In this document: one piece after another, positions 1,784-46,767 of the stretch | Layout: every line of letters begins with the position of its first letter | How positions within the stretch are numbered: position 1 is the first letter of the stretch | Source of the DNA: Candidatus Nomurabacteria bacterium | GTDB taxonomy: Bacteria > Patescibacteriota > Saccharimonadia > JAGOAT01 | Direction of reading: 5' to 3' | NCBI GenBank assembly: GCA_020639315.1 | Contig: JACKGM010000002.1 | Coordinates: 94,321 to 158,320 of the forward strand | DNA: 64,000 nucleotides | Position numbers and translations under genes: made by a program | The notes under the pieces: model-generated | Seen by the model: only the letters and a program-made list of their open reading frames with translations | What the model was told of the DNA's origin: nothing | The model's database searches: none

Positions 1784-2006
1784 TGTCATCCTCCGAAAAT
1801 CCAAAGGATTTTACGGGGGATCCAGTATCCCTGCATTTCCGGGGATTAAATTCAAATACTGGATCTCCGGTATTACTCTAAAGAGTAATCCGAAGATGAC
1901 AGAGGGGGTGGATCTCCCATAATTTCCTACGGAAATTTGGAAGATGACACAAAGGGGGCATTGTCATCCTCCGAAAATCCGAAGGATTTTACGGGGGATC
2001 CAGTAT
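1784..2006. repeat. REP/BIME-like hairpin-unit cluster (4 units, orientations + - - +)
   Basis: Units TGTCATCCTCCGAAAATCC-aaa-GGATTTTACGGGGGATCCAGTAT (1784) and a near copy at 1961. Inverted units of the CTTCGG/CCGGAG and CTTCCA/TGGGAG subtypes lie at 1855-1900 and 1911-1950. Confidence 0.85.
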
Positions 2007-2313: not shown

Positions 2314-5145
2314 CTAGAGCTGTAGATAGGGTTTGAGATAATGGCCAGTCTGGGATGCTTTGATCTCGGCTACTTGCTCGGGGGTACCTGTAGCAATCAC
2401 TTGCCCACCGTTTTGCCCTCCCTCTGGGCCCAAATCAATCAAATAATCAGCAGACTTGATCACATCTAAATTGTGCTCGATTACTAAAACAGTATTGTTT
2501 TGGTCAACTAAACTCTGTAAAACATCAAGTAGCTTTCTGACATCTTCAAAATGTAATCCTGTAGTAGGTTCATCTAGGACATAGAGAGTATGCCCTCTCT
2601 GACTCTTAGATAGTTCACTGGCTAGTTTAATCCTTTGAGCTTCGCCACCTGACAGAGTAGTAGCTGACTGACCAAGTGTAATATAGTCAAGACCTACTTG
2701 TCTCAAAGTGGCAAGTTTACGCTCAAGAGCAGGGTAGTTGGCAAAGAAATAATATGCCTCCTCAACTGTCATTGATAAAACATCAGCAATCGTATTAGAT
2801 TTGTACTTAATCTCGAGTGTTTCACTACTATAGCGTTTGCCCTGACAAACCTCACAAGCCACATAGACATCAGGCAGGAAATGCATTTCTATCTTAATAA
2901 TCCCATCACCTTTACAAGTTTCACAGCGTCCACCTTTGGTATTGAAGCTAAATCGCCCTGGCCTATATCCTCTCTCTCGGGCTAGAGGCGTTCTAGCAAA
3001 TATCTCTCGGATTTCCGTAAACATCTTGGTATAGGTTGCAGGATTGGAGCGGGGGGTGCGACCAATTGGACTCTGATCGATTGCAATCAATTTATTGATT
3101 TTCTCTAGACCCTTAATCTCTTGATGACTACCTACTGGATGATAAGTAGCATAAAAGTGATTGTGCAAAGCATTGACCAGAGTATCATTGATAAGAGTTG
3201 ACTTACCCGATCCAGATACACCAGTCACAGCTACAAACTTACCCAAGGGTATTTCAACATTGACTGACTTGAGATTGTGTTCACTGGCACCAATAATTTC
3301 AAGCTTACCCATGCTTTTTTTGCGTCTTTTGCTTGGTAGGTTGATCCGTTGAGCTTTACTTAGGTATTGACCAGTCAAAGACTTTGAATTGCTGGCCACT
3401 TCCTTTGGTGTGCCAATCGCTACCACTTGACCGCCATGCTTACCAGCTCCAGGACCAATATCTACTAGGTAGTCACTCGCCCAGATTGTGTCCTCGTCAT
3501 GTTCAACTACTATCACTGTATTGCCAATATCTCTAAGCCTTTTTAGGGTAGTAATCAAACGGTCGTTATCTCTTTGATGCAAACCAATCGAAGGTTCATC
3601 CAGTATATACAACACACCAGTTAATCTTGAACCAATCTGTGTAGCCAATCTAATTCTTTGTGCTTCACCACCAGCCAAAGTATTAGCACTTCGCCCTAGT
3701 TCCAAATAATTCAATCCCACATCACTAAGAAATTCCAACCTGTCAATAATCTCTTTAAGAATTTGTCTGGCAATAATGGCTTCTTGGTCAGACAATTTTA
3801 GACTTTGATAATAATTCAGAGCTATTTCGACTGTCATATCATTGATATCAGCAATAGACTTATCCTGAACAGTAATCGCTAGTACCTCAGGCTTGAGTTT
3901 TCGACCCTTGCAGGCTTGACAGCTCTTTTCCCGCATATATTTGGCTATATCATTACGAATATAATCACTATCTGTCTCTTTATACCTTCTTTCTAGATTA
4001 TTGATTATTCCTTCGTAAGATAAATTATAAACATTACCTGAATTTGTCTTGACAGCTAGCTTGGTCTCAACTCCATAAAACAATGCGTCCAGTTGGTGCT
4101 TGGTCAATTGAGCAATCGGAGTTTGCAAGCTAAAGCCTAGCTGTTCACCCAAGGCTTTAATGGCTTGCATATAGTAGCCTTGAAGATTTAGATTGCGACT
4201 CCAAGGACGAATCGCACCTTGAGAGATTGAAAGCTCAGGATTGGGAATCACAAGCTCGGGGTCAATCTCCTGCTTACTACCAAGTCCTGTACATTCTTGG
4301 CAAGCCCCATGAGGCGAGTTAAAGGAGAATAGTCTAGGCTCGATTTCTGGCAGGCTAAAGTTGTCACCATCAGCACTCATATAATTTTCACTGTACTGTG
4401 TAGTGTCAGCTATGATTTGACCGTTCCGATCCAGCTTGGCTACTCTGATAATGCCTTCTGATATTGCTAGGCCCGACTCTACTGCTTCACTCAGTCTTTG
4501 ATTATTAGATTGATTCAGCTCAAATCGATCAATTATCACTTCGATGGTGTGCTTTTTATTTTTTGCTAAAGTAGGGGCCTCATCGGTGTCGTATATTATC
4601 CCATCGACTCGAACTTTCAAATAACCATCTACTAGGAGTTTGTCAAATATTGCCTGATGTTCTCCTTTGCGATCTCGAACAATAGGGCTAAGAATTGCGA
4701 TCAAAGATTGCTGGTAATCAGACTTGATCAATTCTACTATTTCAGTAGCCGTCTTTTTGGTCAGAGGGTGACCAGTTACTGGGTGGTGGGGGATACCGAT
4801 TCTTGCAAAAATCAATCTTAGATAATCGTAAATCTCAGTGACTGTAGCTACGGTCGAGCGAGGATTGCGAGAGCTAGATTTTTGATCGATTGAGATTGCT
4901 GGTGAAAGTCCATCGATCTGATCAACATCGGGCTTATTCATTAGCCCCAGGAATTGTCTAGCATAGGCCGATAGGCTCTCAACATATCTTCTTTGACCTT
5001 CAGCATACAAAGTATCAAATGCCAAAGTTGATTTACCGGATCCCGAAAGACCAGTAATGGTTATTAACTTGTTTCTTGGTAATTCCAAATCAATGTTTTT
5101 CAAATTGTGCTCTCTAGCACCCTTGATAACAATTTTATCTTGCAT
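2314..5145 (-). CDS. uvrA: excinuclease ABC subunit A
   Basis: 943 aa. Two ABC ATPase modules (GLSGSGKST and GVSGSGKST Walker A, LSGGEAQR signatures twice) and zinc-finger Cys clusters. SD-like GAGGAGAG lies upstream. Confidence 0.95.
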   Translation of the reverse strand: MQDKIVIKGAREHNLKNIDLELPRNKLITITGLSGSGKSTLAFDTLYAEGQRRYVESLSAYARQFLGLMNKPDVDQIDGLSPAISIDQKSSSRNPRSTVATVTEIYDYLRLIFARIGIPHHPVTGHPLTKKTATEIVELIKSDYQQSLIAILSPIVRDRKGEHQAIFDKLLVDGYLKVRVDGIIYDTDEAPTLAKNKKHTIEVIIDRFELNQSNNQRLSEAVESGLAISEGIIRVAKLDRNGQIIADTTQYSENYMSADGDNFSLPEIEPRLFSFNSPHGACQECTGLGSKQEIDPELVIPNPELSISQGAIRPWSRNLNLQGYYMQAIKALGEQLGFSLQTPIAQLTKHQLDALFYGVETKLAVKTNSGNVYNLSYEGIINNLERRYKETDSDYIRNDIAKYMREKSCQACKGRKLKPEVLAITVQDKSIADINDMTVEIALNYYQSLKLSDQEAIIARQILKEIIDRLEFLSDVGLNYLELGRSANTLAGGEAQRIRLATQIGSRLTGVLYILDEPSIGLHQRDNDRLITTLKRLRDIGNTVIVVEHDEDTIWASDYLVDIGPGAGKHGGQVVAIGTPKEVASNSKSLTGQYLSKAQRINLPSKRRKKSMGKLEIIGASEHNLKSVNVEIPLGKFVAVTGVSGSGKSTLINDTLVNALHNHFYATYHPVGSHQEIKGLEKINKLIAIDQSPIGRTPRSNPATYTKMFTEIREIFARTPLARERGYRPGRFSFNTKGGRCETCKGDGIIKIEMHFLPDVYVACEVCQGKRYSSETLEIKYKSNTIADVLSMTVEEAYYFFANYPALERKLATLRQVGLDYITLGQSATTLSGGEAQRIKLASELSKSQRGHTLYVLDEPTTGLHFEDVRKLLDVLQSLVDQNNTVLVIEHNLDVIKSADYLIDLGPEGGQNGGQVIATGTPEQVAEIKASQTGHYLKPYLQL

Positions 5146-5206
5146 GGCTACTCTCCTCTATTCAAACATCTCGTAATACTCTACCGTACAAATACCGATA
5201 TGTCAA

Positions 5207-5369
5207 TAACCCTGTTGCCATATAACCTCACGGCTTCAAAACTGCCATTTTTGCCCCAGACTAGCAAAACACTTCGCAGCGTAACTCCTGTTATGCTTTG
5301 TCGTGTTTTGGTATTCTGGAATAAAAATCATCAGCTTTGACCTCGCAAGTTTATATGGCAACAGGGTTA
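5207..5369 (+). mobile_element. MITE family 1 (163 bp, 19-bp perfect TIR TAACCCTGTTGCCATATAA)
   Basis: Perfect terminal inverted repeats at 5207-5225 and 5351-5369. No coding capacity. Full copies also at 31925-32088 and 49969-50131 in inverted orientation. Confidence 0.7.
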
Positions 5370-5398
5370 ATTTATCTTCCCCGTTTTATCGGTTACAG

Positions 5399-5484
5399 AA
5401 CTCAAATACTGGAGATGACACAAAAGAGGAATTGTCATCCTCCGAAGTTCGGAGAACTTACGGGGGATCCAGCATTTTGCATTT
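5399..5484. repeat. hairpin-unit cluster (1 truncated inverted unit + 1 full unit)
   Basis: AAATACTGGaGATGACA (internally deleted unit) followed by TGTCATCCTCCGAAGTTCggaGAACTTACGGGGGATCCAGCAT. Confidence 0.8.
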
Positions 5485-5497
5485 CTTATGACCAATA

Positions 5498-5661
5498 TAT
5501 AGCAAGTTAAAAACAAAACCAGACTTTTGACCCAACTCTAGAGTCTATCAAGCTAGTTTTCTTACTCACCATATCTATGGATATGGCTCTTAAGAAGAAC
5601 TACCTTTCTAGTTCTCTATAGTACAGCTCAAATTGTCCGGTTTTGTTTTGAGCTTGCTATA
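5498..5661 (-). mobile_element. MITE-like long-palindrome element, family 2
   Basis: Reverse-complement copy of the 2012-2176 element (TATAGCAAGTTAAAAACAAAACCAGAC...GGTTTTGTTTTGAGCTTGCTATA). Confidence 0.6.
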
Positions 5662-5696
5662 ACAAGGTTAATCTATCAGGAAATGCGAAAATCCTA

Positions 5697-5702
5697 TATA
5701 AT
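5697..5702 (+). promoter_or_regulatory. -10 box TATAAT 6 nt upstream of the ATG at 5709 (leaderless-type arrangement)
   Basis: TATAAT-tactct-ATG with no SD sequence. Confidence 0.3.
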
Positions 5703-5708
5703 TACTCT

Positions 5709-6242
5709 ATGCCAATACTAAAAGAAACCCCTGCAAATCCCCTGAGTCAATACAGTAAAATCAAACTTACCCTAGATACCAATCTAAGTCAGATCAGTAA
5801 CCTAAAAGTTTTATTACAGGAAATTGAAAAAACTCCAGATCTACTTGACCGCCTTGAGCTCAAAATCATGATTACCGATACTACTGATTATATGGAGGGG
5901 ACAGGAAGTCAAATAGCTCTCCCTAGCTCCTACAGGAAAAGATTAATTAGTAACCTAAGACCAAGCTTAGGCAAGTTAAACTACCAGATACTTTTTCAGT
6001 CCGATTGGACATTGAGTGTTAATCTAGAGCAATTTTTACCCTTAATCAAACAATACCCCAAATATAGCCTAAATACCCTGTTAAAAGCCTATGACAATAT
6101 TAGCTTGCAAATTGAAGCCGAAGTCTTACTAGATACTCCGAACCTAGCTTATCAGCAATTAACTCAAATCCTTAGTGATTACTTTAGCCTAACCACTCCT
6201 GATTTTTATAGTTACCATGAAATTATCGGACCCAATCACTAA
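5709..6242 (+). CDS. hypothetical protein
   Basis: 177-aa ORF overlapping the recG start by 26 nt. No recognisable motifs. Confidence 0.4.
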   Translation: MPILKETPANPLSQYSKIKLTLDTNLSQISNLKVLLQEIEKTPDLLDRLELKIMITDTTDYMEGTGSQIALPSSYRKRLISNLRPSLGKLNYQILFQSDWTLSVNLEQFLPLIKQYPKYSLNTLLKAYDNISLQIEAEVLLDTPNLAYQQLTQILSDYFSLTTPDFYSYHEIIGPNH

Positions 6243-16666: not shown

Positions 16667-19600
16667 ATGGTTAAATCTAGTAGCATAAAAAATTATTGGG
16701 CGGGTCTCACCCTCACCCTCCTACTCACCCTTAACACCTTGCTCCCAGCCCTCAGCTATGCCCAGATCACACCAATCCCCAACTCGCCCGATCAGCTAAG
16801 TAAGTCATCCCAATCATCCAGGCAAGTCAGTCAGCTAGCTCAAACAGAAGTAGATAATACTACCTCAAGTAGCCCCCTTAACCAAGCAGGTCAAGTAGCT
16901 AGTAATCTAGCTAGTCAAGTGATTGACGATCTGAGTCAAGTAGCTAGTGAGGTTTCTGATTCAGCTGAAGCAGCCTACCTCCAAAACGACTCAGATGGAT
17001 TTTACTATGTAGACTTCATTGGTAATGATGCCGGAGTAGTACCCAATGGTGGGTTTGGAGGCATTAGTAATAACTATCTAAGTAATAATATTGCTGGTAC
17101 TGTCAGTATTGATCCAGCAGGAGGCAATACTGCTACAGTCTCCACCGTCGAAATCAGACCCAACTCCTTCGATGGTTGGAATCAAGTAGAGCTAGAAGCT
17201 ACCTACTCTAGTACCAATGCCATTAAGATTAATCTCCTGACTTGTGATGATAACCTTGTCCCCAATACTCCAATCCCAGGATTTCAAAACCTCACCCTCT
17301 CTGGTGGAGTAGTAGACATCTCTAGTCTTAATCATATCCCACCGACTGGGTATGACTGCATCCGAGTCCAAGTAGTAATGGACAACCTAGCAGGTAGTAT
17401 TCCTGCTCCAGTAGTATCTAAGATCAAAGCTAGCTGGATTCCATTACCAGTCCTACTAATCGATCACTTAACCCCAGACCAAGTAGAAGTCGGTCAAGTG
17501 ATTGTCAATACCCTTAGGCTATCAGTCTCTTATGCTGAGGCTTGTGAGGTAGTAGCTTACGCACCTCTTCCTGAGACAGGAGCTACAGACCCTGATAACT
17601 ATGTCGACAATTATACTCCTAGCTATGGTCAAAACCCCAATCCCAGCTTGATCGAAGCTAGTGACAACGGAGCATATACCGCTAGTCAAATCACTATAGG
17701 GGACACTACTATCCCAGCCAACTCAGTCTACTGGGATCTAGGGTGTCTCAAGGCAGGATACACTGGCAAACTAACCTACAAGCTTAAGACCTTAAATGGT
17801 TGGGAAAATGGTATCCTTTATCATACTCAAGCCTATGCTGGAGCCGAGTCTCCAGTAGCCCCAGTCACTAGTGACAGTGACAAGACTACCAGTGGAGCCC
17901 AAAAGAACCTAACCGAACTAATCTCTACTCCCAAGCCAGTGATTGACAAGACAGTGTCGGGGACTTTTTATTACAACTATATTCACTATGTCTACGATAA
18001 TGCAACTGCTGGCTATACCCCTCAAGTCACCTACTATATCAAGATTTCCAACGCAATCAATCAGTTTACCGGTGTAGAAACTATCTTCAATGCTAGTATC
18101 AGCGATGATCTGAGTGATATCTATGATAAACTAGCCAACCAATGCGGAGTAGCTACTCCCGGTACGAGGATTAGCAATATCAGCACTGGTGGGGTGCTCG
18201 ATGATACTACTCTAGGATCTGAGGTAATTGACTGGACTGGTCTAGGTAATATGTTACCAAACCAGAGCAAATATGTAAGTTTTTCTGTCAATTATGCAGG
18301 TTGTCCTGACGATCAAGTGATCAACAATACTGCTACCTTTAGTGCTGACAATATTAGCGATATTTCAGATGCAATTGATGTGGTAATCAATTTGCCAGCA
18401 GATATTGAGCAGGTAGGGATTTACCCTAGAAAATATTTTGGAGATACTACCTACAACAATCTCTCTACTATTAGCTTGCCGATGATCAATAGTGGGACTA
18501 CTACCTTGGGTGATCTTGTCACGATTGACAAGATACCGAAGAGTTTAGCCGATGGAGATACGGTAAACAACCAACCCCACAGTACCGATTTCGTCAATGC
18601 TAGCTTACCCAACGGAGTCAATGGTAGTATTTGGTATCGTACAGACGAAGTAGATAGAAGTATGACAGATCCCCCAGGATACGATCCCCTGACTGGAGTA
18701 ATGACTGGCTGGATTGATTATTTACTGAACCCACCCGCTGATCCTAGTGATGTGACCTGGGTGGCATTTCGGGTAGATTGTCTCAATAGCAACTTATTTG
18801 ACGCTCCTACTAGTGGCAGATGTGCCAATCAGCCTACTTCTACCACTGCCAAGATAACAGTCAAGGCGATGCAAGATACGACCTGTAGTATTCGTACTCT
18901 TAGCAATCAAGCTCTCTTTTATGCTTATGAAGGTGGCAGTGAGCTACCTTTCTCTGATCCATTGACCGCACCTCAATTGCCCAGCGACCTTGCTACCCCA
19001 CTCCAAAATATCCAGTCTGATCCAGCTCTGATTAGTCCAGTCACACCGAGGGTGATTACGGATATTAGTGGTCCAGTTGGCGTGACTCCTCCTGGAGAAA
19101 TTGAATACACGATCAAGCTCTCAACCCTATTTGAAACTGCCTTAAATACCGTAGTCACCATACCGACTCCAGTAATCAATGTCGGAGGAGCCAATACCTA
19201 TCTCAAGCTAGTCAATGTCGATACTACTACCGGCTCAGTCGACCTAAGCAAGATCTATAGCTCACCCTATCAGATGACTATCAACCTAGGCAATCTACCT
19301 GCTGGTAGTTCTGAGACTATTACTATCAAGTACCTAGTGTCAGCTGGGACATTGCCATACAAAAACATTGATATTACTCCGACCACTACTTATCAAGACA
19401 ATGCCAACTGTCCAGTGGTAGGCTCGACTGATACAATTCGAACCCAAATCTACCCCGGTGTTGCCAGTCTCATCACCTACAAAGAAGTCACTGAATCCCT
19501 AATCCCCACTGGAGACAATATCCACTATGCTCTCCATTTCCAAAACATCGGTATCAACCCTACTACTCAGACTTGGGTAGTAGACAAAGTCCCTGACAAG

Positions 19601-22600
19601 ACAGTCTTAGACTACCTCTATCTCAATGGCACAGATCCAGTCGGCAATAGCTATTCCTGTACCAATTGCAAAGCCTATTTCTCTAAGAGTATCCCACCCT
19701 TGCCGAGTGATCTTTCTCCCTCTGATCCGCTTGATCCCACCATTATCAATAACAACTTTACTCTAGGTACCCAGGAAGCCAATCCCTCTGGGGGTACTCG
19801 CTGGGTCTCACCCTTCGGGATAGAGACTAGTTACTTCGCAGTATTAGTAGACAACAGTGCCTTGACTCCCTCAATGTTCCCAGTCGGAGCGATCGGTAGT
19901 GTCGGAGTAGAGGTAACTAATGATTCGAACAATACTACTCCCACAGTCGAAGGTTCTCCTGCAGGATCAATTATCTCCAACTCCAATGCAATCCTCTCAA
20001 GTGAACTACTCCAAGCGATCGCACCTCCAGTCTTTACCACTATCTTGCCTAGTCCTGGTCTAGCTATCAACAAGTATGAAGTCACTAGTAGTGGTAGTGA
20101 AGTCCTCAAGGCTGGAGAAGCCTTCCAGTGGAAGATAGACTATCTCAATGACTCAGGTACTACCAATTCAGTCACTAGAATCATTGACCACTTACCAGCC
20201 GGAGTAAGTCTAAGCTCGATTAAAAACAGCTTTAACAGTCATGCTATTAGTCAAGGTGCTAGTAGTGGAGAAGTCGACATTACGACTAACCCCGTAGTCA
20301 GTATTGTTAGCAACCTAGATGGGACAGCTACTATCACAATTGAAATCGCCAATGATGATGGTACTAGCCCTAGTCTCCGTGGCTCAGGACTAGGATTAGC
20401 TGATCGTGAGGGAGGAGTAATCACCCTAAACCTAGTAGCAGATACCGATCTAGTCACTGGCTCAATTATTACCAACAAAGCCGATGGTTACTATGAAGAC
20501 AGTAGTGGCAAGCCCGGACAAGTCACCGACACTGACACTCTAGTAGTCCGTAACCCAGACCTAGCTATCTCCAAGCAAGTCTCTAGGACTGATCCCATAC
20601 CTTCATCTGCCCCCAATCAAGACTTCTTTAACTACACCCTCCTAGTCTCCAATGAAGGTCTAGCTAGTGCCAATAATGTAGTGATCACCGATACCCTTGA
20701 TCCTGGTATTTGCTACAACTCCGCTACCCCGACTGTGATCTCAGTCTCCGGGGGTTGGAGCTTACCAGCTCCGACTGTCAGTGGTACTTGTGCTAGTGGT
20801 CAGACCCTTACTTGGAACGGGACAATCGATCATACCTCCTACCCGACTGGTACTATCCCCGCTCTCTCTGAGCAAATCCTAATCACCTACAAAGTATATA
20901 TTGATCAATCTATTGCCAATAATACTACCTTGAGTAACAATGTATCGGTCAGCTCGACTGACATAGAGAGTCCAGATAATTATCCCAATACCGCTACTAG
21001 CTCAGTCACTACTCCCGAAGCTGATCCTTACGCTATTAAAGTCGGAGAGAGAACCGTAATCCCCGGAGAGACTTGGGAGTTTAATCTAATCTATGGTAAT
21101 GACTCTAGAGCAGAAGCTACTGGAGTATACCTAATCGATACTCTACCCGACTGGGACACTACTAGTGATCCGAGTGGAGCTGGACAGAGCGATGTCACCC
21201 TCAATTTCGTCAGTGTTAGTAATGGGGAACAAGTATATTACCACTCAGGAGCAATCACTGCCTCTCCTCCAGCCTTTGATCCCAACAATCCGACCAGCAA
21301 TGGTTGGACTCTTACTCCCGGGACTGGTTCGTCCTCTCCCAACTATATTGCTATCTTACCTAATCCTAGTACTCTAGCTAGTCAAGCTGGACCATATACA
21401 GTATCTATCAACTTGACAGCTACTGATCCAGACACTGGGTTTAACCTACCCTCGGGCACTACTCTCACTAACAATGTTGACATCTATGCTGATACTGACA
21501 TCAATACTACTAACAATCATAGTAATGCTACGACCAAGACTCCTAGCTCCGACCTCGCTATCACCAAGACCTCAGACCCTTCAGGATCCTATCCTGGTAT
21601 CGCTCCTGGAGAAGCACTGACTTATACCCTCAGAGTAGAGAATAAGGGGACAGAGTCTACTTGTCAGATCGGAGTAACAGATGACTTGACTAGTAACCTA
21701 GCCTATCTAGAACCCCAGACCCCACTCCATAGTCTCGGTACAGTTGAGCTTCGTAACATTAGTGACAATAGCTCTACCGACTTCGTCAATCTAGTAGGAG
21801 ACAAGATCACTGACTTAGTCGGAGTGACAGACAACTCAACAGCATCAATGCTAGATATTGAGATAGGAGACAGCACCAATCCCCCTAATACTGTCTGTAT
21901 GCCAGCCAATACCTACTTTGAGTTTCAAGTATATACTAGAGTCCTAGATAGTACCCAGGACTCAGTAGAGATTGTCAATCAGGCTACTGTGACCAAGCTC
22001 TCTACTCCAGTAGAAGATTATCTAGACAACAATACTGACAGTAGTAGTGTAGTAGTCTGGAGAGCAGACCTCTATACTCACAAAGATGGCTTTGGTTGTG
22101 GAGCTGATAACAACTGTAATTCTACAGCTGACAATGATGATACTTACATAGATGCTGGGGAGAGAATACATTATGACGTCGAGTATGGCAATGTTGGTAA
22201 CATCTCAGCTGACAATCCTGACCTAGTCGAATCAATTCCTGTAAATACTTGCTATCGTCAAAATTCTGTCACCAATCAACCCCCCAATACTACTTTACAA
22301 TACAGCAATGACAATGGTATCACCTGGGACTATACCCCAGTCTATACCAATAGTCAGGATTGTAGTATCACAGACCTAAGATTTCACTGGAACTCTGAGC
22401 TGCCAAATTCTCGGTACTTTGGAGAGGCGGGGAGTTTTACGGGGGTTAAGAGTCAGATCAATACAATACCATCTGACTATTTAAGCCCGGGTGGAATTGA
22501 GAAGATATTGGCTAGTGATGGGGCTTCTGGTGACTTGTTTGGTTATAGCGTAGCAATCGATGGAGACCGGGTCGTGGTCGGGGCATACAGGGATGGCGAC

Positions 22601-25600
22601 AATGGCACCGACTCCGGCTCCGCCTACCTCTACGACTGGGATGGCAGCAGTTGGGTCGAGACCAAGCTACCTGTTAGTGATGGGGCGGCTGGTGATAGCC
22701 TCGGCTACAGTGTGGCAATCAATGGAGACCGGGTCGTGGTCGGGGCACTTTATGATGACGACAACGGCAGCAACTCCGGCTCCGCCTACCTCTACGACTG
22801 GGATGGCAGCAGTTGGGTCGAGACCAAGCTGACTGCTAGTGATGGGGCGGCTAATGACCGGTTCGGTCAGAGCGTAGCAATCGACGGAGACCGGGTCGTG
22901 GTCGGGGCATTTTATGATGACGACAATGGCATCTACTCCGGCTCCGCCTACATCTACGACTGGGATGGCAGCAGTTGGGTCGAGACCAAGCTGACTGCTA
23001 GTGATGGGGTGTTTAATGACTGGTTCGGCTACAGTGTAGCGATCGATGGAGACCGGGTCGTGGTCGGGGCATACAGGGATGACGACAATGGCACCGACTC
23101 CGGCTCCGCCTACCTCTACGACTGGGATGGCAGCAGTTGGGTCGAGACCAAGCTGACTGCTAGTGATGGGGCGGCTGATGACCGGTTCGGCCAGAGCGTA
23201 GCAATCAATGGAAACCGGGTCGTGGTCGGGGCACCTTATGATGATGACAATGGCACCGACTCCGGCTCCGCCTACCTCTACGACTGGGATGGCAGCAGTT
23301 GGGTCGAGACCAAGCTGACTGCTAGTGATGCGGCGGCTGATGACTGGTTCGGCTACAGTGTAGCGATCGGTGGAGACCGGGTCGTGGTCGGGGCATACAG
23401 GGATGACGACAATGGCGCCAACTCCGGCTCCGCCTACCTCTTCAGTCCCGAGGATGGAGTCTGGACCCAACAAGTTATTAAATACTACACCTCCGCTTAC
23501 TACTACAAATACACTACCGTCAGTCCCACCCTCCACGACTCCTGGAGCAAGCTCCTAATAGACTCAGAAATCCCAGAGGGTACATCGATCACCTACTCCC
23601 TCTATAGCAATAGCACCTGTACCACCTCCCTCGGTACTCAGTGGCAGAATCAGCCAGTCACCTCAGTAGTCGACATCTCTAGTATTCCTGCTACAGTGAC
23701 TAATATCTGTATCCGCTTCGACTTCGATCGGACAGCCAACCCGACTGCCGAACCTAAGATCTATGGATATACCTTTACCTATCAAGGACCAGTCACTAAG
23801 TTTGGCTTTGATGTAGTAGCAATGCAAGATACTACCTTAACTACTATAGACAACAATGTCTCTATTGCTACCGCTACTCCCGAACTCTTGACTAGCAACA
23901 ACACTGATACTGATAGAATGTTCTTACTTCAGTCAGACTTAGAGCTTAAGAAGTCAGTCGATCTCTCAGCCATCACTACGACTGAGATATCTAATGGTGA
24001 TACCCTGACCTATACTCTAGAGTTTAGTAACCTCGGACCAAATACTAGTAATGCAGTAGTAGTTACTGACCAGCTTCCTCTAGCCTTCCAGACAGATCCT
24101 CCTAGTACTCCAGTGATCGTGGCTACCCTAGACAGTGGGGCAACTATGCTCTGTAGTTTTGATTCAGCCAACCGTAAGATTTACTGTGACAATGATGGAT
24201 CCTCAGCTACTGCCTCTACTCTCACTCTAGCTCCCGGAGAGGGAGGAGTAGTGACTATCACTCAGCCAATCAATCCAGCTGATCCTGGAGCAGTCGATGG
24301 CTCAATCCTCGTAAATACTGCTAGTATTGACTCATCCACCCTCGACCCTACTCCAGAGAACAATACTGACTCAGCCTCGACTCTAGTCGGGACTGCTAGT
24401 AATGTCTATGCTGTCAAGACTGGTAGTGATATCAAAGCCAACCTCGGTCAGGAGTACACCTACACTATTGAGTTTGGTAACAATGGCAATCAAGATGCTA
24501 CTAACTTCAGTCTAGTAGATATTCTTGACAATACTCACCTCTCGACCAACCCTAGTGAGATCCCAGTAATCGATCAATCCAACCTAGCTACTGACATCCC
24601 TGGGCTAGTCTGTAGCACTGAGGGAACTGCACCAGACTACACTATCTACTGTGATGATGATGGAGATAGCTCTACTCCATCAAGCTTCACCCTGACTAGT
24701 GGCTCAGCTTCTAGTATTGATATCACAGTTGTTGTTAAGGGTGACATCAACCTCTTGACCAACCCCTACACAGTAGTAGAGAACATAGTATCAGTCGATA
24801 CTACCAGTACTGAAGTAGACATCACTGACAATACTGATACTCACGAAGTACCAATCATTCCAGCTGGTCTCTCAACTATCTCTGGTACTGTCTTCTATGA
24901 CCAAGACAAGGACATAGCGATCGATGATGGTGACTATGGGATAGAGGGAGTAGATGTCTTCCTCAGTGGAGTAGACTTGCTCGGGAATATCCTAGTGCCA
25001 GACAAGAATCAATATCCAGTAGAATACGAACAAGCTATGACCAATCTAGTCAGTCAAGGACTAATCCCAGCTGGTAGCTATAGTGCTTCAAATCCCTATC
25101 CAGCCGGATACTTGATCACTAGCCCAGTGATGACTGATCAAAATGGTCACTATGGTTTTGCTGGTCTCTATCCTGGTACTTACAATCTCTATGAAACTCA
25201 GCCCAGCCAATATGCTTCTACTGGCTCAGACAATGGCTTCCTGGGCTATGATAGTAATGGTGACCCCTTGCCTGACCCTAGTAATGGTCCAGACGGAGCT
25301 GGGACTGATCCTAGATACGGAGAAGGGAGCTTACAGACATCTGATCCACTAACAGTCAATCAGATTAACTCAATCGTACTACTTGAAAACGAAGACTCAA
25401 TAGAGAACAACTTTGGTGAAGTAGGACTATCCCTCGGCAACTACGTCTGGAATGATTTAGACAACTCCGGTACTGTCAACGGTAGTGAGACTGGTATCGA
25501 TGGTGTAGTACTAGAGCTCTATCAAGATACCAACTCCAATGGAGTCTATGATCCTGGGATAGATGCTCTAGTCTCAAGTACTGTCACTGGAGACAATCCA

Positions 25601-28600
25601 AACACCACTGGAGTGACTGAAGTAGGCTGGTATCAGTTTGATGGCCTAATCCCAGGAGATTACCTAGTCTTAGTCACTAGTACAAACTTTGATACTGGTG
25701 CAGTCCTAGAGAACTACTTTAGCTCTACTCTAGTAGTAGACCCAGATAATGACACCGACAATGATGACAATGGAGTAGTAGTCAATGGCGGAAGTGATTA
25801 CTCAGCTGGGGTAGCATCTCAAGCTATTACCCTAGAACCATTGACTGAACCAATCACTGATGAGGATACTGATAGTAATACTAATAACACATTGGACTTT
25901 GGGTTTTACCAGACAACTAGTTTGGGCAACTATGTCTGGAATGATGGTAACCACGATGGCATCCAAGACATCACTGAGTCGGGAGTAGACGGAATAACTG
26001 TCACCCTCTACAGTGCAATCGATGACAGCATAGTATCTACTACTGTCACGGGAGACAATCCAGACACTGTAGGAATCATCGAGACTGGTTGGTATCAGTT
26101 TGATGATGTTCCTGCTGGAGACTATTACATCACCTTTAGTAGTTTACCTACCAACTATGTCTTTACCTCCGCTAATCAAACTACTGATCAATACGACTCT
26201 GATGTCGAGAATCTGACTACTGGACAAACCGCTACCTTCACTCTAGCGACTGGAATAATGCCTGACAACTATTACCCAGACATTGATGCCGGGATCTATG
26301 ATACTAGCTTAAGTATTGGTAATACTGTCTGGATCGAAAATGGCAATAACTCAGTCTATGACTATATCACTGACACTGGAGTCAATGGGGTGACTCTAGA
26401 GCTTTACCTAGATACTAATGACAATGGTGTCTATGACAGTGGAGTAGACACCCTAGTCTCTACTACAATCACGGGAGACAACCCAGCTACTACCGGGGTG
26501 ACTGAATCAGGCTGGTATCAGTTTGCTGGTCTGAGCGCAGGAGACTACTTCGTCCTAATCCCAGCTAGTCAGCTAACTACTGGGGGAGCTCTATATGGAT
26601 ACAGTTCAATCTCAGGACAATCTGGAGATGATCAGATAGATAGTGATGACAATGGAGAACTGTCTAGCTATGGAGTAATCACTCAAGTAATCAGTCTTGC
26701 TACTGACTCAGAGCCGAGTAATGATGGAGATGGTAGTATCAATAGTGACCTCACTATTGACTTTGGCTTTGTGGCTCAAGAGTTAGGACTTGATATCACA
26801 AAAGACATTAATAATCTAGTACATATCTCTGATAACCTTTACTCAGCTAGTGTTACTATCACTGCTAGTAACCTCGGAGGTCAGGACCTGACCAACTTCC
26901 AGCTAGTCGATAATATTGAGACTAGTCTAAACCTCACTAGCTCGGACATCACAGTCACTACTATGCCAGTGATTGATAGTGGGTTTGTGTTATCAGACAT
27001 TACAGCCTCAGACCTAAACTCTAGCTTTAGTGCAAGTAGCTTAGACCCAGACATCTTTAGCTCCGGGCTAACCCTCCTAGATGGTGACTCAGGAGTAATC
27101 AGCTTCACGGTGGAGCTCAATATCACTGACTACTACTCAGTCTTTAGTAATGCACCGAGCTGTAACCCTGACCCAGCTTTGACTTCTACCCCTTGGATTG
27201 ATATCGATGCTTTTGGTAATGGGACAATTGTCGGTACGACTGAGGCTAATGCTACTGTAGCTATCTATGTCGATTCTTCACTGTTTGCTACTACTGTAGC
27301 TGACAGTAATGGTTGCTACCTATACAATTTCACATCAACTGATTTGCCTTGTACTGCTGGCGATCATACGATTACTGTCTATGATACTGAGAGGGAGTGG
27401 ATGAGTAGTGTTGATTTTCAGGCCAATACACCTGGGACAGATTTGGGCTTCTTCTTTGATGTCACTACTGACCCGACTACCTGGACACCACTGCCCGACT
27501 CGGCACCCGGAGATACTTTTACTGGCGGGATTGGTGATGTCGTCACTACTAGAGATGGTTCTATCACCTATTCTCCAAAGTTGATAGACCTGGACAATAT
27601 ACCCTATTCAGTAATTGATATCTATGACACTAGTGACAAGGACAACATTAGCTTACTTGGTAGTATTGATTTGGGCAGTTACGCATATGGAGCAGCAGTA
27701 GCCTTATCACCTGATCAAACAAAACTTTTTGTGGCAGAATATCGACCTGCTACATTCCCAGGAGTAATAACAGTCTACGATGTTTCAGCTGTCCCGACTA
27801 CTATTCCGACGACTCCGATCCAAACTATTAACCTACCAGGGATAACAACTGGACCAATCGATCTAGAGATAGACAACCAAGGAATTGTTTGGGTAGCAGC
27901 TGACTTCCAGACTGGTGGAGCTATCTATACCATTGACTCAAACAATCTAGGAGCTGGTGCTACTCTGGCTCACTCTCTAGCTGGGGCAATGGCTCTAGAG
28001 ATCTCTAAGAGTATGAACAAGCTCTATATATACCAATATAATTCAGTTGATCAGATCAGTGTAATCGATACACTGTCAGGCACCTTAACAACTGGAGTCC
28101 ATACTCTTGATACCAATAATACTACTAGCGACTACTTTGTATCAGCCGCAATTGATCCTTATGGGTTCTATTACTACGTACCAGATCCTTTAAATCATGA
28201 GATTGATATGCTGGATGTAGTTAGTGGGGCATATTTAGGCTCAATTGCTCTACCTAATGATCTGTTGATTACTTCAGTGTATATGACTATTGACGGAAAG
28301 TATTTAGTAGCATCTGGAGTAAATGATGGATCAATCGATCCCGGTTTAGAAAACACTAGAGAATTGGCAGTATTTGATACTTCACTAATTTCAATCAACC
28401 CTGGAGATTATATGCTACTGTCTAGGATCTCATTAGGCGTTAGTAGTGAGAGTTGGGGATATGCTACCTTCGGAGGTGGAGCACCTTCAGCTAGTCTGAC
28501 TGCCCCAGAGGGAGATTGTGTCAACACCCTCCCCAACATCGCTAGTCTGACTAGTGATCAATCTAGTGTCAGTGACCCAGCTAGTTTCGGAGCTTCTACC

Positions 28601-31600
28601 CCTAATCCAGCTCTTGATCTAGTTAAGTCAATCACTACTGTTCCAGAACTCTTAAGTCTAGACTCTTACCGCTACACTATTGATCTTCGATTGGAGAATA
28701 CTGGTAATGTCGACTTGTCTCAGCTAAATCTAGTAGATGATATTGAGACCGAGATCCCTGGAGTAGTAGTCACTGCTGTCAATAGCGTTACTGTCTCTAC
28801 TGCCCCCGCTACTGGGACTCTGACTCTCAACCCTAGCTATGATGGTAAGTCAACCAACCCTCAATTGCTTGATCCTTTGACTTCAGATCTACCGATCGGT
28901 GAATTCGCAGTGATTACAGTAGTAGTAGACTTAGACTACAGTGGAGTCACAGAATCGCCAGCTGACAATACAGCTACTGTAGACGGAGTAGATACCGTAG
29001 ACCCTGACAACACCGTGAGTGATCAGAGTACTGCTGAGATGGATCCTAGTAATATCCCTACTCCTGACTTGACTATCGTCAAAGACACCCTCCCCGCTAC
29101 CACTGACCCTGAGCTAGCTACTTGGCTCAGTGATGGAGTGACAGAGTACAGCTACAGTCTAACCCCAGCCCTGAGTGGAGCAGAGATAGTCAATAGTGGG
29201 GGTACTAGTCCAATCAGAGTACTAGACAATCTACCTCCAGAACTGACTATGACTGATTACCCAACTGGATCAGACGCAGTCAACTGGGACTGTAGTGCTT
29301 CTAGTCTAGGTAGCCCAGCAATTCTAGACTGTAACTACCTGGGTTCTTACCCAGTCTCTCCAGCTACCCTAGAGAGTATTATCGTGACAGTCACTCTTAA
29401 TCCCGGAGTAGACCCTAATACCACTATTACCAATACTGCTACTGTCTCCTCTACTGAAGAACCAGTGGTTAATCAAGACAACAATAGTGATAGTGAAGAG
29501 ATTGGTGTCCTAGGAGTAGTAGACCTAGAGCTGACTAAGTCAGTCAACAATCCTACTCCTTTACCCCTAGACCAAGTGACTTGGAGTATTACAGTCAGTA
29601 ACAATGACACAGGTAATGGACTATCAGATGCTACTGGAGTAGTAGTAGAAGATATCATCTCTGGACTAGCTCCAGACCTAGTCTACTTCTCTCACTCTAT
29701 TACCGATGCTCCTAGTGCTGGTACCATAGGAAGCTTTGATCCTCTAACAGGAGTATGGAACATTGGAGATATCCCTAGTGGAGAAGAGACTACCCTAGAA
29801 ATCACGATGGATCTCTCAGCCACTGCTACTGGTACAATCAAGAACTTGGCTCAGGTCACTGGACTCGATCAAGTAGACATTGATTCTGATCCCAATGACA
29901 ATACTTCAGCCCCAGACCCAGATAGTCCTAGTGACCCCGGTAGTAAGCCAGTCACAACTACCAACCCTACTGGTCTAGACCTCCATGATGATGAAGACAA
30001 TGCCGAGATCACCCTCTTGCCTACTCCTGACTTGACCATCGTCAAAGACACCCTACCCGCTACCACTGACCCTGAGCTAGCTACTTGGATCAGTGATGGA
30101 GTGACAGAGTACAGCTACAGTCTAACCCCAGCCCTGAGTGGAGCAGAGATAGTCAATAGTGGGGGTACTAGTCCAATCAGAGTACTAGACAATCTACCTC
30201 CAGAACTGACTATGACTGATTACCCAACTGGATCAGACGCAGTCAACTGGGACTGTAGTGCTTCTAGTCTAGGTAGCCCAGCAATTCTAGACTGTAACTA
30301 CCTGGGTTCTTACCCAGTCTCTCCAGCTACCCTAGAGAGTATTATTCTGACAGTCACTCTTAATCCCGGAGTAGACCCTAATACCACTATTACCAATACT
30401 GCTACTGTCTCCTCTACTGAAGAACCAGTGGTTAATCAAGATAACAATAGTGATACTGAAGAGATTCTGACTGAAGATCCGATCCTTCCCCCTGACCCTA
30501 CCCCAATGGTCGGGATAGCCAAGAGCATCGGAGCTATCACTCAGACTACAGACCCATTAGATCCAGGACAGCTGATAGCTAATAGCTATGATATCCCAGT
30601 CACCCTGACAGTCAGAAACTATGGCCTAGGACAAGCCTTAATGGTTGATGTCACTGATGACCTAGTAGCTACTTTCCCTGACTTAGACCCAACTCAAATA
30701 GTAGTCTCTACCCCAGTCTCAATCACTACTACTCCAGACTCAGTAGTAGCCAATCCAAACTATGATGGAGTAACTGATACTAGTCTAACTATCCCAGCAG
30801 ACTCTAGTCTAGCTCCAGACCAAGTAGCAGTCCTAAGCTTTACTCTGACTTTGACTAGTCCTACCCTAGACCATGACTACTTCAATACAGCTCTAGTCAC
30901 TAGTACTGATACTAATGACAATACCTACACTGATGACTCCCAAGACGGACTAGACCCAGACAATGGCTCAGATGATCCAGCTAGCAATGGCAATGATGAT
31001 CCTACAGACAATACAGAGCCTAGCCTAATCCTGATCCCAGACACCACCCAACCCCTCCCCATTTCCGACCTCTCCCTGACTAAGTCCCTTGAGACCACCG
31101 AAGAGATTAGGATAGGAGATACAGTCACCTTCGCTCTCAAGCTAACCAACAATAGTACCACCACCTCAGCCCCAGGACCAATCACTGTGACTGATACCCT
31201 CCCCACAGGACTAACCTTCATAGGATTTACTAGTGCCAACCCCAACTTCAACTGTAGTGGTACTACTACAGTAACCTGCACTCTAGATGATAGTATTCTT
31301 CCTACTCTTAGTGAGACAGTATATATCAATACCTACATAGGAGAAGACACCTCAGACACTATCTCCAACATCGCTACTCTAGCCACCACCACCTCAACCG
31401 ACCCAGACCAAACCAACAACACAGGTCTAGTCAGTGGTATTAGTATTACCACCCCAGAGCCAGAACCCGAACCTACCCCCACCCCAGAACCCACCCCAAC
31501 CAACTCCAATACCAAAGACATCACTTCAAACTCTATCTTGCCTAATACTGGTATCCTCTCTCATCCAGTCACCCAATTACTCTTACTAATCTCTATAATC

Positions 31601-31653: not shown

Positions 31654-31908
31654 TGTCATCCTCCGAAGTTCAGAGAACTTACGGGGGATCCAGAGCATTA
31701 GTCATCCTCCGAAACCCAGAGGGTTTACGGGGGATCCAGTATTCCCGCATTTGCATTGTCATCCTCCGAATTCTCCTTGAGAGAATTACGGGGGATCCAG
31801 TATTTAGTATTTATGGGGCTCAACTCAAATACTGGATCTCCGGTATTTCTCTTTTAGAGAAATCCGAAGATGACAAGAGAAGGGGGCATTGTCATCCTCC
31901 AAGATAAA
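31654..31908. repeat. hairpin-unit cluster starting 9 nt after the giant-gene stop
   Basis: Units with stems GAAGTTC/GAACTTA, GAAACCC/GGGTTTA and GAATTCTC/GAGAATTA, an inverted CTTCGG-type unit, and a terminal half unit. Confidence 0.85.
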
Positions 31909-31924
31909 AACAGTTTTTGTGTAA

Positions 31925-32088
31925 TAACCCTGTTGCCATATAAACTTGCGAGGTCAAAGCTGATGATTTTTATTCCCGACTAGCAAAACACGACAAAGCA
32001 TAACAGGAGTTACGCTGCGAAGTGTTTTGCTAGTCTGGGGCAAAAAATGGCAGTTTTGAAGCCGTGAGGTTATATGGCAACAGGGTTA
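31925..32088 (-). mobile_element. MITE family 1 copy (inverted relative to 5207)
   Basis: TIRs TAACCCTGTTGCCATATAA / TTATATGGCAACAGGGTTA. Directly abuts a family 2 element. Confidence 0.7.
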
Positions 32089-32090
32089 AT

Positions 32091-32253
32091 ATAGCAAGCT
32101 CAAAACAAAACCAGACAATTTGAGCTGTACTATAGAGGACTAGAAAGGTAGTTCTTCTTAAGAGCCATATCCATAGATATGGTGAGTAAGAAAACTAGCT
32201 TTATAGACTCTAGAGTTGGGTCAAAAGTCTGATTTTGTTTTTAACTTGCTATA
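32091..32253 (+). mobile_element. MITE-like long-palindrome element, family 2
   Basis: Near-identical to 2012-2176. Confidence 0.6.
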
Positions 32254-38268: not shown

Positions 38269-38357
38269 TATAGCAAGCTCAAAACAAAAGAACTAACTTT
38301 CTAGCTTTTTATTATTAGTAGTAGCAAATTGTCCGATTTTGTTTTTAACTTGCTATA
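38269..38357 (+). mobile_element. short (89 bp) internally deleted family 2 MITE-like element
   Basis: Same TIRs (TATAGCAAGCTCAAAACAAAAG...GATTTTGTTTTTAACTTGCTATA) with a different, shorter interior. Confidence 0.5.
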
Positions 38358-38359
38358 AT
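38351..38359 (+). promoter_or_regulatory. extended -10 (TGcTATAAT) 7 nt upstream of the dnaE ATG, formed partly by the MITE terminus
   Basis: CTTGCTATAAT-actagtt-ATG with no SD. Confidence 0.35.
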
Positions 38360-41884: not shown

Positions 41885-41996
41885 TGTCATCCTCCGAAAC
41901 CCACCCTTCTCCTGTCATCCTCCGAAACCCACCCTTCTCCTGTCATCCTCCGAAACCCACCCTTCTCCTGTCATCCTCCGAAACCCACCCTTCTCC
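41885..41996 (+). repeat. tandem array of four identical 28-bp half units (TGTCATCCTCCGAAACCCACCCTTCTCC)
   Basis: Starts 3 nt after the dnaE stop. No spacers. Followed by one complete hairpin unit at 41997-42039. Confidence 0.9.
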
Positions 41997-42047
41997 TGTC
42001 ATCCTCCGAAACCCAGAGGGTTTACGGGGGATCCAGTATCTCCGCAT

Positions 42048-43633: not shown

Positions 43634-44730
43634 TGCAAATCGACTACCAAGCGATAGAAGCTGCTTGGTCTTCTGATTTGGCAACCTTAAATCAACAGCT
43701 TCAGACTGCTACTGATTACAACTCCGATCAATACATTAGTAGCCTCAGGCGTCAGAAAAAACTTTCTACTAAACTCCAAACAATTCAAGATTATAATCAG
43801 CTAGTTAAAGACTTGGAAGAACTAAGCTCACTACTAGAAGATCCCGAATTTGTCGAACTAGCAAAAGAAGAGCAAGCAGAAAAATCCAAGCTAAGAACCG
43901 AGCTCAAACAAAAGCTAGAGTTAATGATTCTGCCTGAAGACCCGGATGATGATAAGTCCGTCATTCTCGAGCTTCGAGCTGGGGCAGGCGGTGACGAAGC
44001 AAGTCTATTTGCTTCAGAGCTACTACGGGGCTATGGTCGTTGGCTTGAGTCCAAGGGGCTTAGTGTCGAATTACTCTCAAGTAGCGAAAATCCAGTCGGT
44101 GGATACAAGGAAGTAGTTTGTGAGGTTAAATCCAGCCGAGACCTCGGAGCTTACAACCTTCTCAAATACGAATCTGGCGTACACCGAGTCCAAAGAGTAC
44201 CGACTACCGAATCTGGTGGCAGGATTCATACTTCGACTGTCACAGTAGCAGTCTTACCAGAAGTAGAAGAGAACGAACTGGAGATTGACCCAAATGACCT
44301 CAGAATCGATACCTATAGGTCAAGTGGACATGGAGGTCAAAGTGTAAACACGACTGACTCAGCTGTTAGGATTACCCACCTACCGAGTGGGGTAGTCGTT
44401 ACCTGCCAAGATGAGAAATCCCAACTTAAAAATAAAATCAAAGCTATGACTATCTTGCGCAGTAGACTTCAGGCTATCTGGCAAGCCGAGCAACAAGCAA
44501 AGCTAGATCAAAACAGACTAGTTCAAGTCGGTACTGGGGATAGATCTGAAAAAATTCGTACCTACAATTACCCCCAAGACCGAATCACCGATCATCGCAT
44601 TAACCAATCCTGGCACGGTTTAGAACAAATTATCAATGGAGACTTCGACAAAATATGGCAAACCCTAGATTCCGACTACCACCAGCAACGGTTAGCTCAA
44701 CTGCTCAAAGACAAGCCAGAGACTACCTAG
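43633..44730 (+). CDS. prfA: peptide chain release factor 1
   Basis: GGQ motif ([11 protein letters not shown]) and [17 protein letters not shown] with a PxT tripeptide typical of RF1. Confidence 0.9.
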
Positions 44731-45497: not shown

Positions 45498-45783
45498 ATT
45501 GGCTAAACCCCAAAGCCTCTAGATTTTTGATCAAATACTGATTCCAGTCTGTAAACCCCTGTCCCTCAAGCACTGGACAGAATTGATTGAGCTGACTAAG
45601 CTGGCTATTGACACTTCCAGCATACATCTTGGCTTCTTCTTTGTTTTTGCCAAGCATCAGATCTACTATGCACTCAAGTGACAAAACCAAATCCTCGATC
45701 AGAATTGATTTGGCGTTTTTATACATCGGTAGTGACTGCTCGGGAATCACGACATTCCCTGATATTAATTTAAATCCTGACAT
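45487..45783 (-). CDS. hypothetical protein
   Basis: 98-aa ORF preceded by a strong SD (AGGAGGGATAATG). No motifs recognised. Confidence 0.45.
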   Translation of the reverse strand: MSGFKLISGNVVIPEQSLPMYKNAKSILIEDLVLSLECIVDLMLGKNKEEAKMYAGSVNSQLSQLNQFCPVLEGQGFTDWNQYLIKNLEALGFSQFNI

Positions 45784-45986: not shown

Positions 45987-45993
45987 TACAGCT

Positions 45994-46725: not shown

Positions 46726-46767
46726 CAATTACCCTTAGAGTAATTTTAAATAATCAGGAGACAACAA

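Follow-up and report, generated by a model that had tools for sequence, protein, structure and literature searches.

Strand-oriented extragenic hairpin repeats in a Candidatus Nomurabacteria contig and their probable assignment to the Ssn-related motifs of the NTS/dRS3 class

The 64-kb window analyzed here (the whole stretch of 64,000 nt from contig JACKGM010000002.1 of a Candidatus Nomurabacteria bacterium) contains a family of hairpin-forming repeat units, which were found in all ten intergenic clusters listed for them in an initial annotation, at the coordinates given there. These units are probably Ssn-related motifs (SRM), i.e., strand-oriented extragenic hairpin repeats of the Neisseria NTS/dRS3 class, and are arranged in mosaics resembling NIMEs and BIMEs. 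The dRS3 repeat was described in 2000, and the repeat class was described together with its enzyme in 2025. The earlier view that the unit belongs to no described repeat family does not hold, and the novelty attached to it is largely lost, as the flanks and the palindrome of the units have the features by which the NTS/dRS3 SRM class is defined (Chenal et al., Nat Commun 2025, PMC11893778). Judging from the literature searched, a subclass with a long stem, a T.G pair and a bulged A, which is missed by the published search string, appears to be new, as do the density of the units in a genome of the candidate phyla radiation (CPR) and the arrays of half-units.

The NTS was defined as CGTCATTCCCGCGMAVGCGGGAATCYRG (Chenal et al., Nat Commun 2025, PMC11893778). 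According to the same study, NTS-like SRMs are spread across bacterial phyla and flank ssnA, a 94-aa single-domain GIY-YIG (cd10448) gene, and high SRM loads are enriched in symbionts. The SsnA protein binds only to single-stranded DNA (ssDNA), and to one strand only, cuts a few nucleotides upstream and does not bind RNA. Mutagenesis of the NTS revealed that the three nucleotides 5′ of the palindrome mainly affect cleavage, and SsnA binding depends most strongly on the C adjoining the 3′ end of the palindrome. In Neisseria, SsnA modulates transformation. An SRM has a palindrome of the form AT(T/C)C...G(A/G)AT, which is immediately preceded by GTC and immediately followed by a C, and then a CYRG tail (PMC11893778).

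All of these features recur in the units of the window. A non-palindromic HGTC(W)(Y) is located directly 5′ of the palindrome, all units have an 8-bp basal helix of the form AT(T/C)C...G(A/G)AT, the C right after the helix is invariant, and the CCAG tail fits CYRG. The units are also extragenic, clustered and highly repeated. The 13-mer GTCATCCTCCGAA occurs 41 times with up to two mismatches, compared to 1.3 occurrences expected from shuffled sequences. A structural parse resulted in 33 full units, to which two were added by eye and alignment, so that the total for the ten clusters is 35 full units, of which 23 lie on the + and 12 on the - strand. Two further units are interrupted by an insertion sequence (IS), and the half-units number about 15. 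Every unit lies outside the open reading frames (ORF) of the window, which has a coding fraction of 0.84 and thus 16% non-coding sequence, and the density amounts to about 0.8 elements per kb.

From 5′ to 3′, a full unit consists of (T/A/C)GTC, an 8-bp basal arm, an upper arm of 6-8 nt, a loop of 3-5 nt, the complementary upper arm, a single A, the complementary basal arm and CCAG, with a total hairpin length of about 32-36 nt. A half-unit comprises the 5′ flank, the basal arm, the 5′ upper arm and a C/T-rich linker. Three main types of the basal helix were found, namely ATCCTCCG/CGGGGGAT, ATCTTCGG/CCGGAGAT and ATCTTCCA/TGGGAGAT, besides a fourth type, CGA/TTG; rarely, the basal arm reads ATCCTCGA. 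The units are distributed over the clusters as follows.

Cluster 1, 1784-2006: composite module of four full units, 1784-1825 (+, type ATCCTCCG), 1859-1901 (-, type ATCTTCGG), 1908-1949 (-, type ATCTTCCA) and 1962-2003 (+)
Cluster 2, 5399-5484: internally deleted remnant of a - strand unit at about 5399-5420; full unit 5433-5472 (+)
Cluster 3, full units within 13905-14504: 13952-13991 (+), 14023-14066 (-), 14078-14119 (+), 14337-14390 (-, CGA/TTG type) and 14398-14437 (+)
Cluster 3, other elements: half-units 13923-13950 (+) and 14444-14472 (+); short-form unit 14249-14280 (+); unit 14473-14504 (+), cut by an IS after ACGGG
Cluster 4, 16005-16360: 3′ remainder of the split unit, 16005-16012; full units 16031-16070 (+), 16088-16127 (+), 16159-16200 (-), 16207-16248 (-), 16260-16299 (+) and 16305-16344 (+)
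Cluster 5, 31654-31908, beginning 9 nt past the stop codon of a giant ORF: full units 31654-31693 (+), 31700-31739 (+), 31757-31800 (+) and 31832-31875 (-); lone 5′ half 31890-31903 (+)
Cluster 6, 41885-42039 (+), beginning 3 nt past the dnaE stop codon: four identical 28-nt half-units (TGTCATCCTCCGAAACCC + ACCCTTCTCC, 41885-41996), then full unit 41997-42036
Cluster 7, 50642-50748 (+): half-unit 50643-50670; full unit 50671-50710; unit 50717-50748, cut by the second IS copy after ACGGG
Cluster 8, full units within 52249-52835: 52275-52314 (+), 52332-52371 (+), 52403-52446 (-), 52454-52495 (-), 52503-52544 (-, perfect palindrome), 52586-52625 (+) and 52632-52671 (+)
Cluster 8, other elements: half-unit 52558-52585 (+); degenerate - strand copies up to about 52835
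Cluster 9, 56614-56860: 3′ remnant (-) at about 56598-56641; full units 56659-56700 (+), 56734-56775 (-) and 56786-56825 (+)
Cluster 10, full units within 62305-62712, beginning 27 nt past the pyrG stop codon: 62457-62498 (+), 62530-62572 (-, perfect palindrome) and 62642-62683 (+)
Cluster 10, half-units: array of 28-31-nt half-units 62305-62456 (+); 62590-62599 (-), 62610-62641 (+) and 62703-62712 (-)

As described in the initial annotation, the arrays behind mnmE, the giant ORF, dnaE and pyrG begin 3-27 nt past the stop codon with the TGTCAT strand in the sense orientation. A composite module of the order type A(+), 31-nt spacer, type B(-), type C(-) and type A(+) is found at 1784, 13952, 16088, 31757 and 52332. 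Since the modules recur as composites, the unit copies are not independent events.

The compensatory variation that led to the first description of a REP/BIME-like family is real. For the covariation analysis, 22 distinct units were aligned over the 15 pairs of the hairpin, and 97.0% of the cells were paired, compared to 78.3% in column shuffles, none of which reached this value (0/500). Changes on both sides of the pair were found for 10 of the 15 pairs, and registers slid against each other were at most 56% paired. In the basal helix, the switch of the fourth pair was seen as first noted: pair 4 alternates between C-G and T-A, pair 7 between C-G and G-C, and pair 8 between G-C and A-T. The upper stems are even more diverse than first noted, as at least nine different sequences instead of at least six were found, each perfectly paired.

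In contrast to the paired arms, several positions hardly vary. No variation was seen at G2, T3, C4, A5, T6 or at the C that follows the helix among the 23 aligned units. Each of the 33 parsed units has TGTC, AGTC or CGTC as its lead, and the tail is CCAG in 28 of these, CCAC in three, and CCAT or CTAG in the remaining two. The T.G wobble at basal pair 5 and the single unpaired A 5′ of the 3′ basal arm had been regarded as fixed, and this is nearly the case: the T.G is present in 31 of 33 parsed and 20 of 22 distinct units, and the bulged A in 29 of 33. Two perfect palindromes at 52503-52544 (-) and 62530-62572 (-) have neither, since T.G is replaced by T-A and the usually bulged A has a T partner. 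In these two units one arm looks as if it had been copied from the other, by snap-back or hairpin-templated repair. The short-form unit at 14249-14280 (+), CGTCATACTCAGAGCTTGCTCTGGGTATCCAG, lacks the upper stem and the bulge and retains the T.G at helix pair 5.

The minimum free energy fold of the TGTCAT strand as ssDNA is the proposed continuous bulged hairpin (-8.3 to -9.4 kcal/mol), while the complementary strand, which has a C.A mismatch and a bulged T, folds more weakly by 1.3-1.6 kcal/mol. The asymmetric constants, i.e., the T.G, the bulged A and the non-palindromic flanks GTC...CCAG, suggest that one strand is read while it is folded. A strand-specific fold of either RNA or ssDNA had been suggested before; the asymmetry bears out the first part of this suggestion, and ssDNA rather than RNA is the best-supported reading for the second.

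The unit architecture is not confined to the window. One genome per species was scanned with the two flanks and a free middle, a loose pattern that yields many chance matches in high-GC coding DNA. Among the matches listed, at least about 35 real loci from very distant lineages share the architecture, with a C/T-rich stretch, (C/T)GTCATCCTCG, a variable perfect hairpin and CGGGGATCCAG; in many of them a purine, mostly A, is left unpaired 5′ of the 3′ basal arm. The lineages among these matches include Patescibacteria, Saccharibacteria, Peribacteria, Rickettsiales, Hyphomicrobium, Methyloligella, other Alpha- and Gammaproteobacteria, Nitrospira and Phycisphaerae. Canonical short NTS-like copies stand beside long units, for example TGTCATTCCCGCGCAGGCGGGAATCTAG in locus L012 and further copies in L027 and L100; by its sequence, this short form is the Neisseria dRS3/NTS sequence. 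A covariance model, as had been proposed for checking the family, was built from the window units only and detected long-stem units in Patescibacteria, Rickettsiales, Methyloligella and others with E-values of 1e-7 to 1e-5. In a metagenome scan, the exact subfamily was found on only two contigs, both of them short (L123, 1189-1346, and L124, 994-1033). Their units have another compensated variant of the upper stem, AAGCTC/GAGCTT versus AAGTTC/GAACTT.

A link to the Ssn nuclease is provided by four loci in which the arrangement SRM-ssn-SRM was re-observed independently:

L027 (Phycisphaerae): ssn 3604-3897; units at 3559 and 3961, half-unit plus full unit at 4104/4124
L016 (Hyphomicrobium): ssn 275-535; short form at 152, long form 852-898
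L126 (Daviesbacteria, CPR): ssn 2962-3243; half-units and full units on both sides
L127 (Daviesbacteria, CPR): ssn 3001-3282; canonical NTS-like units on both sides

L126 was retrieved via the protein and not via the DNA pattern, and the covariance model of the window units finds an SRM 68 nt upstream of its ssn gene (E-value of about 1e-3). The Ssn partner of the window units is predicted to be encoded elsewhere in the genome. Ssn proteins of about 95 aa are 70-80% identical across Phycisphaerae, Daviesbacteria, Deltaproteobacteria, Gemmatimonadota, Chloroflexi and others, an identity between phyla that would fit a horizontal spread of enzyme and site together. Many genes for such proteins are found on very short contigs. 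Together with the high identity, this is consistent with frequent horizontal transfer and with repeat-flanked genes.

Several points weigh against the assignment of the units to the SRMs. The published SRM string HGTCWYN(0-2)YYVSBRHN(0-5)WNVSBRGN(0-2)RNCYNB, in an implementation that matches canonical NTS-like test sequences, has 0 matches in the window units. The string misses them because it allows only 0-5 nt between the palindrome halves. When this loop limit was raised from 5 to 22 nt and all other positions were kept, 32 matches were obtained, compared to 0.7 in shuffled sequences, so that the units can be read as SRMs with an extra, freely covarying upper stem. Secondly, no GIY-YIG/Ssn gene was found in the 64-kb window by tblastn or by hmmsearch with all filters off (--max), and the source contig was absent among the best 120 of 8000 scored candidates in each of two Ssn homology searches, in which nearly all candidates were significant. 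A detectable ssn is also missing from 19% of the genomes with more than 200 SRMs (PMC11893778). Furthermore, it is from sequence likeness that we infer the long-stem, bulged units to be Ssn substrates. Most cross-phylum loci were found with a pattern that fixes the flanks as well as the T and G of pair 5, and their agreement at these positions is therefore partly given by construction; shorter copies outside the search pattern also show ATCCTCGC(G)/(C)GCGGGGAT (L021, L063, L100, L111 and L118), and C-G versions were found in the same genomes as T.G versions (L020 and L027). The sense orientation of many arrays behind genes is a further such point and is taken up below together with a role of the units in RNA.

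The half-units always immediately precede a full unit whose orientation they share, with the lone 5′ half at 31890 as the single exception, and can form perfect tandem arrays, as in the case of the 4 x 28 nt at 41885-41996. The same grammar of half-unit, C/T-rich linker and full unit recurs in L022, L027, L034, L118 and L126, where it also flanks the ssn gene of L126. They may have arisen through loss of the sequence between short CCA repeats and subsequent slippage, or else when cleaved sites were repaired. As SsnA cleaves split sites made of two half-sites (PMC11893778), the half-units could be alternative 5′ partners for one 3′ arm.

For the units as SRMs, a mechanism can be proposed which we infer from site homology, with the covariation, the asymmetric constants, the match of the flanks to the SsnA map and the ssDNA fold as its observed parts. 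The TGTCAT strand would become single-stranded during replication, repair or the uptake of DNA in competence and would then fold into the 8-bp basal helix, the one-nucleotide A bulge and the upper stem of 6-8 bp. A small single-domain GIY-YIG Ssn nuclease (cd10448, about 95 aa), encoded elsewhere, would bind this fold by contacts to the non-palindromic GTC 5′ of the helix and to the C 3′ of it, and would nick 5′ of the unit, in its C/T-rich flank. The nuclease would not act on the complementary strand, where a C.A replaces the T.G and the bulged base is a T. The upper stem would only need to pair and could drift by compensated changes, while the sequence or shape of the flanks, of the two bases in pair 5 (T and G) and of the bulged A would be recognized, so that these stay fixed; such a readout may explain why T.G and bulged A persist through three basal subfamilies that are compensated at pairs 4, 7 and 8. 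The units would probably have spread both as an SRM-ssn-SRM element, selfish or domesticated, and through duplicated blocks of composite modules; an IS110-family IS would use them as targets. For a CPR episymbiont with natural competence, the predicted effect is a modulated recombination of ssDNA, whether taken up or its own. Natural competence is known from Saccharibacteria (PMC10633639), and SsnA has an influence on the transformation of Neisseria, which makes a role in the handling of imported ssDNA reasonable.

If the units are SRMs, the Ssn/SRM system extends to a CPR (Patescibacteria) genome in which the repeats occupy most of the intergenic space. The published motif misses the long-stem subclass also in Alpha- and Gammaproteobacteria, Rickettsiales and other Patescibacteria, and the abundance of SRMs and their association with Ssn are therefore probably underestimated. 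The pattern of variation, with a free upper stem and fixed T.G, bulged A and GTC/C flanks, would represent a natural mutational map of the likely nuclease determinants, and such a recognition map is relevant to Ssn enzymes as ssDNA tools. A bolder proposal, which we regard as speculative, is that the long-stem units form a distinct undescribed SRM subclass, defined by the 8-bp basal helix, an obligatory T.G, the bulged A and a free upper stem. It would be read via the helix junction by a divergent Ssn lineage, or by a different enzyme if the genome has no ssn, and the half-unit arrays would offer alternative pairing partners for one 3′ arm and thereby alternative cut sites. If this were true, such a dense system could be a main controller of recombination with imported DNA in a genome-reduced competent episymbiont.

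A function at the RNA level, either as 3′-untranslated region hairpins that stabilize the mRNA or as terminators or attenuators, with U.G and bulged A as features of an RNA fold, is considered unlikely. The strong covariation and a T.G that would become a stable U.G in RNA speak for it, and five of the six clusters behind a + strand gene open with a sense-oriented element, in four cases 3-27 nt past the stop codon. However, both orientations are present inside the clusters, with about one third of the units antisense within the same arrays, and one cluster (5399-5484) is located in a divergent promoter region. A G + C-rich stem followed by a T/U tract, as in intrinsic terminators, is not a feature of the units. 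Only one of the 35 units, flagged among those in 44500-64000, is terminator-like, and terminator-like sites are not enriched (20 versus 16.3 ± 5.3 in shuffled sequences). The comparison with Rfam that had been suggested gave no match for the units: at the gathering thresholds only a tRNA-Leu was detected, and a permissive scan of 13800-16700 resulted in only a spurious miRNA hit on another repeat. Finally, SsnA does not bind RNA, and the non-palindromic flanks agree with the determinants by which it recognizes DNA.

It is improbable that the units are REP/REPIN elements mobilized by a RAYT, i.e., a Y1 HUH transposase, elsewhere in the genome, with convergent doublets as the transposing REPINs. 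The elements are extragenic, clustered and hairpin-forming, and seven convergent doublets with spacers of 31-33 nt, often followed by a third unit type, do resemble REPINs; this feature is, however, not exclusive to them. In agreement with the initial annotation, no RAYT/TnpA-REP-like gene (Y1_Tnp) was found among the scanned ORFs of the window with Pfam and NCBIfam. Y1_Tnp genes do exist in CPR, as in L127, but there the Y1_Tnp gene has its own palindrome, ATATCACACCCTTGGGGTGTGATAT, and the ssn gene has the NTS-like units. This RAYT-like gene of L127 is located at 5132-5782, with flanks at 5060-5110 and 5790-5815 and at a distance of 1.8 kb from ssn, so that two separate hairpin/enzyme systems coexist in one CPR genome. 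Furthermore, the published RAYT-associated REP of N. punctiforme, the only one compared, is unrelated in sequence, and REP sequences are lineage-specific, whereas the flanks of the unit are common to many phyla together with ssn.

Two copies of an IS110-family IS are present in the window:

IS110-family IS, copy 1, 14505-16004 (-): transposase 14545-15801, 418 aa, ‘RNA-guided transposase’
IS110-family IS, copy 2, 50749-52248 (-): transposase 50789-52045

In both cases the IS interrupts a unit at ACGGG^GGATCCAG, with the same orientation and no duplicated target. Identity between the blocks 50718-52463 and 14474-16216 is 99% over 1746 bp, about 210 bp of which belong to the right flank, and because of this shared flank the two copies may represent one insertion plus recombination. 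The non-coding ends of the IS showed only chance-level 6-mers when searched for bridge-RNA-like complementarity to the target. It is known that IS110-family/Piv-like recombinases target REP repeats. That the units are mainly attachment or target sites or decayed ends of this element, kept or spread by its RNA-guided recombinase, as might be suggested by the identical position of both insertions and by published cases of IS110-family/Piv-like recombinases targeting dRS3 repeats, is very improbable, considering the two IS copies versus about 50 units, the possibly single insertion event, IS ends without above-chance similarity to the unit, and the many loci that contain the unit class without an IS110 element. 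The dRS3 repeat has been published as the target of a phage recombinase, and the IS110 element likewise looks like a user of the SRM-like repeats rather than their source, i.e., it is associated with the repeat family and not a member of it.

Further candidates were rejected. Cyanobacterial SDR/STRR repeats (Elhai-type) were dropped, as the proteins of the window, which lie on a contig of 371,350 bp, are annotated as CPR (Candidatus Saccharibacteria or Nomurabacteria). Ribozyme cores (hammerhead and twister-type), a tRNA-like minihelix with a 3′ CCA, oriT/nic sites and multi-site ends of the Tn7 or IS21 type were discarded because the conserved cores are lacking by eye. A literature search with sequence strings and with peptides of spurious ORFs gave no match.

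The window contains other repeats as well. A second family, about 165 bp long and with TATAGCAAGCTCAAAACAAAACC...GGTTTTGTTTTnAnCTTGCTATA as its terminal inverted repeats, resembles a miniature inverted-repeat transposable element. Its copies often directly adjoin the hairpin clusters; the family is also the source of the spurious Rfam hit, a plant miRNA. A third dispersed repeat of about 167 bp is also present on the metagenome contig L124 (813-982) with 95-98% identity. Their copies are:

Repeat of about 165 bp: 2011-2175, 5498-5662, 16367-16534, 32089-32253, 38269-38358 and 50480-50602
Repeat of about 167 bp, beginning with ATAACCCTGTTGCCATATAAC: 5204-5369, 31924-32090 and 49969-50138; shorter copies at 36308 and 42046

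The giant ORF (16667-31645, 4992 aa) has an internal tandem array of 162-nt repeats at 22511-23458 with a local GC content of 51%, and a 300-nt duplicate that is 99% identical and spaced by 963 nt (29057/30020). Four contigs from short-read assemblies of the same strain are 100% identical to the window, namely L120 (56318-62492), L121 (57698-62420), L122 (59756-62504) and L125 (38174-41914). Their ends fall inside the repeat arrays, which indicates that the repeats fragment short-read assemblies of CPR metagenome-assembled genomes.

Among the known systems, integron attC sites resemble the units in principle only. In attC a folded single strand is recognized, the stem covaries, and extrahelical bases together with short conserved boxes set the strand choice; R and L boxes, cassette context and integrase are absent in the case of the window units. 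REPIN/RAYT systems and the subterminal hairpins of IS200/IS605 share inverted doublets, intragenomic spread and strand-specific imperfect ssDNA hairpins as the substrate of a small nuclease or transposase, but use an HUH Y1 enzyme instead of the GIY-YIG enzyme presumed here, and the 5′ GTAG-type signature of REPs is absent from the window units. With NIMEs and BIMEs the units have in common short hairpin units of several subtypes, fixed spacers and recurring composite modules, while the unit sequences and the spacers are their own. BIMEs are linked to RAYT and to binding of IHF, gyrase and Pol I, and not to a GIY-YIG nuclease. The NTS/dRS3/SRM class shares (C/T)GTCAT 5′ of the AT(T/C)C...G(A/G)AT palindrome followed by C-Y-R-G, as well as oriented, extragenic copies that are clustered around genes in both orientations, and in other genomes the unit co-occurs with canonical NTS-like copies and flanks ssn genes. 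The window units differ from this class by an extra covarying upper stem of 6-8 bp that is set off by the fixed unpaired A, by T.G at basal pair 5, where NTS/SRM have C-G, by a hairpin of about 32-36 nt instead of about 20 nt, by the CPR host and by tandem arrays of 5′ half-units.

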